In this document: in pieces, positions 1 through 338 of the stretch
How positions within the stretch are numbered: the stretch's first letter is position 1
Layout: every line of letters starts with the position of its first letter
Assembly: GCF_003334305.1 (NCBI RefSeq)
Contig: NZ_QOWS01000084.1
Reading direction: 5' to 3' (one strand)
DNA: 338 nt
Source: Escherichia coli
GTDB lineage: Bacteria > Pseudomonadota > Gammaproteobacteria > Enterobacterales > Enterobacteriaceae
The notes under the pieces: generated by a model
Database searches by the model: none
Told to the model about the DNA's origin: nothing
What the model saw: the letters and a program-made list of their open reading frames with translations, nothing else
Program-made: the position numbers and the translations under genes

Positions 1-338
1 GTCTCCCGCCCCTGCGCATCCTTCTGACTGACCAGTTGCCCACGCGGGTTATAACTGCTGTAAGTGCTGATGCCTTCTTCCCGGTGAACGGCGATTTGTT
101 GACCGTACCGGTCATACTCATACCGCGTCGTGTACCCCGAGCAGTCCGTGAAGGCCAGCAGCTGACCGTAACGGCTCCATGCCATCTGTTTTGTACTGCC
201 CGTCGCATCCTCTATCCCTGTCGGCAGCTCACTCGCCGGGTCATCATAGCTGTACCGCATCGTCTCACCGCTGCGCGAGGTCTCCGCCGTCAGCCTTCCC
301 TTCTCATCATACTCCCGGCTGCTGCGAAGCCCGTCCGG
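1..338 (-). CDS. Internal fragment of an Rhs-family / YD-repeat protein core (polymorphic toxin scaffold); partial at both ends
   Basis: Minus-strand frame with codons at + 338..3 has no stop in 112 codons; the other two minus frames were not translated. Translation contains the YD-repeat signatures REYDEKGRL, RYSYDDP, RYEYDRYGQQI and YSSYNPRGQL at regular spacing. G-rich coding strand (hand count on + strand: C=123, G=82) and Arg/Gly/Tyr/Asp/Thr-rich composition fit Rhs cores. In-frame ATGs (+ 258-260 and 183-185) are internal Met codons with YD repeats on both sides, not starts. Paralog cannot be assigned from 338 bp, so no gene symbol is given. Confidence 0.9.
30..317 (-). repeat. Five consecutive protein-level YD (RHS) repeat units, period about 63-69 nt
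   Basis: Repeat cores on + strand coordinates (read on minus strand): 288-317 REYDEKGRLT; 222-257 RYSYDDPASELP; 150-179 WSRYGQLLAF (degenerate, W in the aromatic position, no D); 90-125 RYEYDRYGQQIA; 30-65 TYSSYNPRGQLV (N in place of D). Aromatic anchor residues fall at protein positions 10, 31, 54, 75, 96, i.e. spacings of 21, 23, 21, 21 residues. Similarity is at the amino-acid motif level; the nucleotide sequences of the units are divergent. Confidence 0.75.

Follow-up and report, generated by a model that had tools for sequence, protein, structure and literature searches.

The stretch of Escherichia coli DNA analysed here (338 nucleotides in full, hereafter referred to as the window) almost certainly encodes, on its minus strand, a row of five adjoining YD (Rhs) repeats that belong to the shell of a clade-I-type Rhs protein from E. 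coli. Its strand, frame and place are now fixed, i.e., it corresponds to residues 489–600 of the parent protein, to positions 488–599 of the RHS_core family profile and to strands 29–38 of the predicted shell, and repeats of this kind are already known from a gene family that has been studied well. The units in which the repeat pattern is irregular are normal for Rhs shells and in part conserved, and the result has little importance beyond annotation.

Coding strand and parent gene of the window

Upon translation, frame 1 of the minus strand was the only frame to yield a YD-type peptide, and it was open across all 112 codons, with nucleotides 1–2 of the window forming part of the next codon. 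The resulting peptide begins with PDGLRSSREYDEKGRL and ends with KDAQGRE. Frame 3 of the plus strand likewise lacks stop codons throughout the window, and in the parent locus it lies within an antisense ORF of 222 codons (positions 7989–8657 of locus L001, on the minus strand of that locus), which raises the question whether the plus strand might be the coding one. However, the translation of plus frame 3 carried no repeat or family signal (vs. an RHS_core match with E = 2e-62 for the minus frame), and every annotated record calls the minus-strand gene. Moreover, the core of the gene has a G+C content of 62–68%, a composition that gives rise to long antisense ORFs by chance, several of which occur along the gene. 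Coding by the plus strand, which was left with next to no probability, was therefore rejected, and the antisense ORF without family signal in this G+C-rich core was considered a compositional artefact.

The minus-strand reading is matched by database records, as the DNA of the window is 100% identical to genes that carry the annotation “RHS element core protein” and are located on the chromosomes of many E. coli strains. Matches were found in 2669 of 5426 complete genomes, the majority at 95–99% identity and in some genomes covering only half of the window, while 107 records matched at an identity of at least 99%.

One such identical stretch lies in strain 214-4, and the 1409-residue protein encoded there was taken as the parent protein. 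Residues 1–1258 of this protein match the NF041261 equivalog profile with 2635 bits (vs. a cut-off of 2000). At its N-terminus, Pfam recognises DUF6531 at residues 47–123 and returned no PAAR-domain match; residues 5–8 were observed to spell PAAR (N-terminus 1–46, corresponding to L001 6537–6680). At the other end, and outside the window, the core closes with an Rhs-associated core domain (TIGR03696, residues 1181–1258) and the autoproteolysis motif PxxxxDPxGL (PLNPIEHIDPLGL, residues 1246–1258), after which a variable tip follows. This C-terminal tip (residues 1259–1409, i.e., 151 residues encoded at L001 10311–10766) gave no significant Pfam match. Its G+C content is about 40% vs. 62–68% for the core, which is the classical composition of rhs genes.

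The gene order in strain 214-4 reads tssBCE, hcp, vgrG, the 1409-codon rhs gene and a sel1-repeat gene, in a locus that adjoins yafV-ivy-fadE and that also carries IS remnants downstream of rhs. Linkage to vgrG, hcp and T6SS core genes is thus present in strain 214-4, and it need not hold for the source of the window. The gene immediately following rhs (L001 10835–11344) codes for a Sel1-repeat protein, a candidate for the immunity function. It was further observed that an ISEc23 insertion (L001 1–187) upstream of hcp-vgrG-rhs cuts the T6SS cluster of this strain and turns tssF into a pseudogene, so that the secretion apparatus may be inactive in strain 214-4.

Register and periodicity of the repeats

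The first-pass annotation of the window had described a regular repeat with aromatic anchors at residues 10, 31, 54, 75 and 96 of the peptide, and both residue counting and shuffle tests confirmed this pattern. The anchors Y10, Y31, W54, Y75 and Y96 follow each other at intervals of 21, 23, 21 and 21 residues, and the glycines opening the units (G3, G24, G47, G68, G89 and G110) show the same spacing. The window accordingly holds five tandem units of about 21 residues of the type GxxxRYxYDxxGRL, and these are listed in Table 1 together with the other features of the window.

Table 1. Features of the window, with positions in nucleotides of the window and in residues of the 112-residue peptide; strands, loops and turns in the last column are predictions from the AlphaFold2 model
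Feature	Nucleotides	Strand	Residues	Description	Predicted structure
Open reading frame	3..338	-		112 codons, being residues 489–600 of a 1409-residue E. coli RHS element core protein	
YD unit 1	270..332	-	3–23	GLRSSREYDEKGRLTAETSRS; anchor Y10-D11; canonical; profile z = 6.2	strand 5–10 (RSSREY), turn DEKGR, strand 16–20
YD unit 2	201..269	-	24–46	GETMRYSYDDPASELPTGIEDAT; anchor Y31-D32; 23 residues; profile z = 4.3, lowest of the five	strand 26–30, ten-residue loop 31–40, short strand 41–43
Enlarged turn of unit 2	219..245	-	32–40	DDPASELPT; holds the 2 extra residues	
YD unit 3	138..200	-	47–67	GSTKQMAWSRYGQLLAFTDCS; anchor W54-S55 at nt 174–179; profile z = 4.4	strand 49–54 (last residue W54), turn SRYGQ, strand 60–64
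TDCSG turn	135..149	-	64–68	joins units 3 and 4; Cys conserved too	
YD unit 4	75..137	-	68–88	GYTTRYEYDRYGQQIAVHREE; anchor Y75-D76; canonical; profile z = 6.2	strand 70–75 (last residue Y75), turn DRYGQ, strand 81–85
YD unit 5	12..74	-	89–109	GISTYSSYNPRGQLVSQKDAQ; anchor Y96-N97 at nt 48–53; profile z = 4.9	strand 91–96 (last residue Y96), turn NPRGQ, strand 102–106
Start of next unit	3..11	-		GRE, the first three residues of GRETRYEYSAAGDLTAIVAPD in the parent protein (parent sequence, tiling)	

The periodicity of the window is far above chance. When the BLOSUM62 self-similarity of the peptide was compared with 2000 shuffles of that peptide, maxima appeared at lag 21 (z = 5.15), lag 44 (z = 4.2) and lag 42 (z = 3.0). 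A loose unit motif was found at exactly residues 3, 24, 47, 68 and 89, and none of 20000 shuffles contained even two matches to it. A single-unit HMM derived by iteration from the five units of the window retrieved 18–20 units from the parent protein and missed obvious ones at 455, 667 and 708; an ungapped profile scan, and subsequently a non-circular version of it, was used in its place. This non-circular profile was derived from seven units of the parent protein that all lie outside the window, and the five window units nevertheless emerged as its five top offsets (z-scores in Table 1). By the same measure, unit 2 is as atypical as unit 3, with unit 5 being intermediate.

In the full parent protein, the ungapped profile scan placed anchors at residues 434, 455, 477, 498, 519, 542, 563, 584, 605, 626, 646, 667, 688, 708, 729 and 753, i.e., at successive intervals of 21, 22, 21, 21, 23, 21, 21, 21, 21, 20, 21, 21, 20, 21 and 24 residues. 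The window lies within the most regular run of this repeat array. Since spacings in the parent vary from 20 to 24 residues, a unit of 23 residues is not exceptional, and the earlier description of an exact 21-residue period interrupted only by two extra residues holds inside the window but not for the parent protein as a whole.

Family profiles were subsequently consulted for the phase of the repeats. Matches to Pfam RHS_repeat (PF05593) were obtained at residues 10–49 (model positions 1–38), 55–89 (model positions 2–36) and 96–111 (model positions 1–16), with E-values in the window of 8.7e-08 and 1.7e-06 and with the third match being weak only because it is cut by the end of the window. Indeed, the same phase recurs at residues 498, 542 and 584 of the full parent protein, where the match starting at unit 5 (parent residues 584–620) is the best RHS_repeat of the entire protein (E = 2.1e-10). 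As one Pfam RHS_repeat comprises two 21-residue units, position 1 of the model coincides with the first, third and fifth anchors, in agreement with the phase that had been proposed from the letters alone. TIGR01643 matched four stretches of the window with 63.4 bits (vs. a cut-off of 15.8), so that the curated thresholds for the YD/RHS repeat are exceeded for both PF05593 and TIGR01643. Alignment to the full-length NF041261 RHS_core profile placed the window at positions 488–599 of 1261 (E = 2.2e-62); the window by itself reaches 211 bits on this profile, of which it represents 112 of the 1261 positions. The repeat models of Pfam (PF05593) and NCBIfam (TIGR01643) agree on the phase of the repeats. 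Shifted repeat boundaries, or significance for only one or two units, had been named as outcomes that would speak against the proposed register, and neither was seen, as significant matches cover all five units.

Predicted hairpins and the nature of the irregular units

An AlphaFold2 model of parent residues 80–1258 had a mean pLDDT of 85.4 and a pTM of 0.79, with pLDDT values of 91–95 in the window. DSSP assigned 86 strands to this model, of which strands 29–38 are situated wholly inside the window and make up five hairpins (Table 1). Each unit is thus predicted to form one beta-hairpin of 6 + 5 + 5 + 5 residues. According to the model, the anchor is the last residue of the long strand in four of the five units, and the long strand of unit 2 stops one residue short of Y31. 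The predicted structure accordingly shows one hairpin per unit with the YD at the strand-to-turn transition, the position attributed to this motif in earlier work (bioRxiv 10.1101/2024.02.26.582050). In Foldseek searches with the model, the solved structures matched included Tse5 (PDB 8cp6; E = 5e-89, TM 0.86) and RhsA (PDB 7q97; TM 0.84), and further solved cocoons were matched as well, i.e., the Advenella and Salmonella bongori cores, Tse15 and Tre23. The units could therefore be mapped onto a shell of the Rhs/teneurin type, as the first-pass annotation had envisaged, in the form of five predicted hairpins within a model that superposes on solved cocoons.

These predictions suggest how the repeats may serve the parent protein, a polymorphic toxin whose gene follows hcp and vgrG within a T6SS cluster. 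In each unit, a strand of six residues would run up to the aromatic anchor as its last residue and give way to a [D/N/S]xxGx turn of five residues; a further strand of five residues and a second turn, which contains Gly, would complete the unit. By analogy with solved relatives, successive hairpins would join into one uninterrupted antiparallel sheet, and this sheet would wind spirally around the C-terminal toxin and close as a cocoon. As described for Tse5, the anchor side chain would point into the cavity, and the hairpin would be retained despite replacement of Asp by Asn or Ser and of Tyr by Trp (PMC10684867). Homologues and gene context further suggest that the protein may undergo autoprocessing at DPxGL, and that it may encapsulate its toxin for delivery by the T6SS (PMC8765631, PMC10684867).

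Within this regular frame, two units had initially been labelled degenerate. The first of these contains WSRYGQLLAF at nucleotides 150–179 (residues 54–63, coordinates exact), in which W-S indeed replaces Y-D. The second contains YSSYNPRGQL, in which Y-N indeed replaces Y-D; the span of 30–65 assigned to this stretch proved 3 nt too wide on each side, its true position being 33–62 (residues 93–102). Both replacements are hence real.

To assess their conservation, a homologue alignment of 28 sequences (31–91% identity) was compiled from a representative search with the 1179-residue shell; a search with the 112-residue peptide returned mostly short partial E. coli entries, and the shell was used for conservation. 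W54 was present in 24 of 26 aligned homologues (31–65% identity), as well as in Tse5, Pseudomonas RhsA and all four K-12 Rhs proteins, and the residue following it was N in 12, S in 6, T in 4 and D in 4 homologues. Unit 3 thus has its Trp conserved at a specific position of the array, which is not a sign of decay, and the label “degenerate” is wrong for this unit. N97, in contrast, is lineage-specific, as K-12 RhsA–D have Asp at its position and so do 24 of the 29 sequences aligned. The TDCSG turn that joins units 3 and 4, including its Cys, is shared by most of the 28 homologues and by Tse5, Pseudomonas protegens RhsA and K-12 RhsA–D.

The two extra residues, earlier placed between units 2 and 3, do exist but are located within the turn of unit 2, after Y31; it is because of this enlarged turn that unit 2 is 23 residues long. 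The same turn is where the insertions of all homologues fall in the alignment. Across the proteins compared, there are no extra residues in RhsA of P. protegens, two in all E. coli Rhs proteins examined, three in Tse5 and a turn about 20 residues longer than that of the window in one homologue (P0092). The Asp of unit 2 is not conserved either, the aligned homologues carrying P in 9, A in 7 and D in 5 cases. The unit-2 turn is thus a loop of variable length in the family.

Comparable replacements have been described for Tse5, in which the repeat Asp is often Asn or Ser without disturbance of the hairpin hydrogen bonds, and in which the inward-facing Tyr is commonly exchanged for Trp, His, Arg or Phe (PMC10684867). 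Both W-S and Y-N therefore represent known kinds of variation. The early remark that such variation is normal in Rhs shells is in this way supported by the conservation among homologues, the variability of the loop and the substitutions in Tse5.

The same observations bear on the question whether decay could instead account for W-S, Y-N and the unit of 23 residues, with the window originating from an rhs pseudogene or an orphan core fragment. Many partial rhs fragments do exist in E. coli genomes, as also evidenced by the short entries dominating the peptide search and by the genomes in which only half of the window is matched. However, the reading frame is open over all 112 codons, identical DNA resides within the intact 1409-codon gene of strain 214-4 that scores above the equivalog cut-off, and the other 19 among the matches listed are annotated as RHS core or RHS repeat-associated core proteins. 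Moreover, decay would yield neither a Trp retained in homologues of 31–65% identity nor an enlargement by two residues that is invariant in K-12 RhsA–D. As the frame and the parent genes are intact and conservation extends across the family, an origin from a pseudogene or relic was deemed very improbable and was rejected.

A further possibility is that the atypical units, with their W-[N/S/T] anchor, TDCSG turn and unit-2 loop, make up a patch of the shell with a special function instead of reflecting neutral variation. In line with this, features of the patch are conserved position-specifically down to 31% identity while the unit-2 Asp and the loop length vary, and the Trp-[Asn/Ser/Thr] anchor is kept in about 90% of homologues next to the invariant-like TDCSG with its Cys. 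On the other hand, any orthologous repeat within a folded shell would be expected to show position-specific conservation, and the structure papers on Tse5 and RhsA report no functional role for the residues of the patch and mention none for the conserved Trp or Cys. A special patch thus seems unlikely, and it is slightly less likely still that this patch, on the wall of T6SS Rhs cocoons, may contact the unfolded toxin, the N-terminal plug or a partner protein. As a by-product, the window offers position-specific landmarks for registering repeats between distant Rhs proteins, namely the Trp anchor, the turn TDCSG and the loop of variable length in unit 2.

Comparison with known Rhs and YD-repeat proteins

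Among the closest known counterparts are RhsA, RhsB, RhsC and RhsD of E. coli K-12, i.e., the clade I Rhs proteins of Jackson et al. 2009 (PMC2935791). All four match RHS_core and display the same five-unit layout without indels over the window, and WSRYGQLL, TDCSG and the 23-residue unit 2 are invariant between them and the window. The window is identical to K-12 RhsA/B/C at 72 of 112 residues and to RhsD at 85 of 112, and it is therefore assigned to a separate lineage within the Rhs family of E. coli (PMC2935791). It further differs in unit 5, where the four K-12 proteins have Y-D vs. Y-N in the window, and in that its parent gene follows hcp and vgrG in a T6SS cluster.

Among solved structures, Tse5 of Pseudomonas aeruginosa (PDB 8cp6) is the best relative both by sequence (E = 1.3e-28) and by fold. 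Residues 7–110 of the window align to Tse5 residues 395–498 (about 30% identity overall), and the anchors, when counted along the alignment, correspond to R398, Y418, W442, Y463 and Y484. Tse5 thus shares the Trp and the TDCSG turn with the window, while its unit-2 loop is one residue longer, its unit 1 has Arg instead of Tyr, and its toxin is a different, pore-forming one.

RhsA of P. protegens (PDB 7q97) forms the same three-turn cocoon, with residues 612–712 aligning to residues 9–111 of the window and with the anchors corresponding to Y613, H634, W655, Y676 and Y697 (again counted along the alignment). Its unit 2 has a canonical HDAHGQ turn lacking extra residues, so that the period is exactly 21 throughout, and the protein additionally carries an N-terminal prePAAR and transmembrane regions.

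Finally, the teneurin YD-shell and the Tc-toxin BC cocoons (e.g., 6fb3 and 4o9x) are more distant. Their sequence similarity to the window is marginal (E = 3e-4 to 0.3), the model superposes on them with a TM of 0.3–0.5, and their plugs and number of turns differ. They have in common with the window the YD-repeat hairpin spiral, with a Foldseek probability of 1.0.
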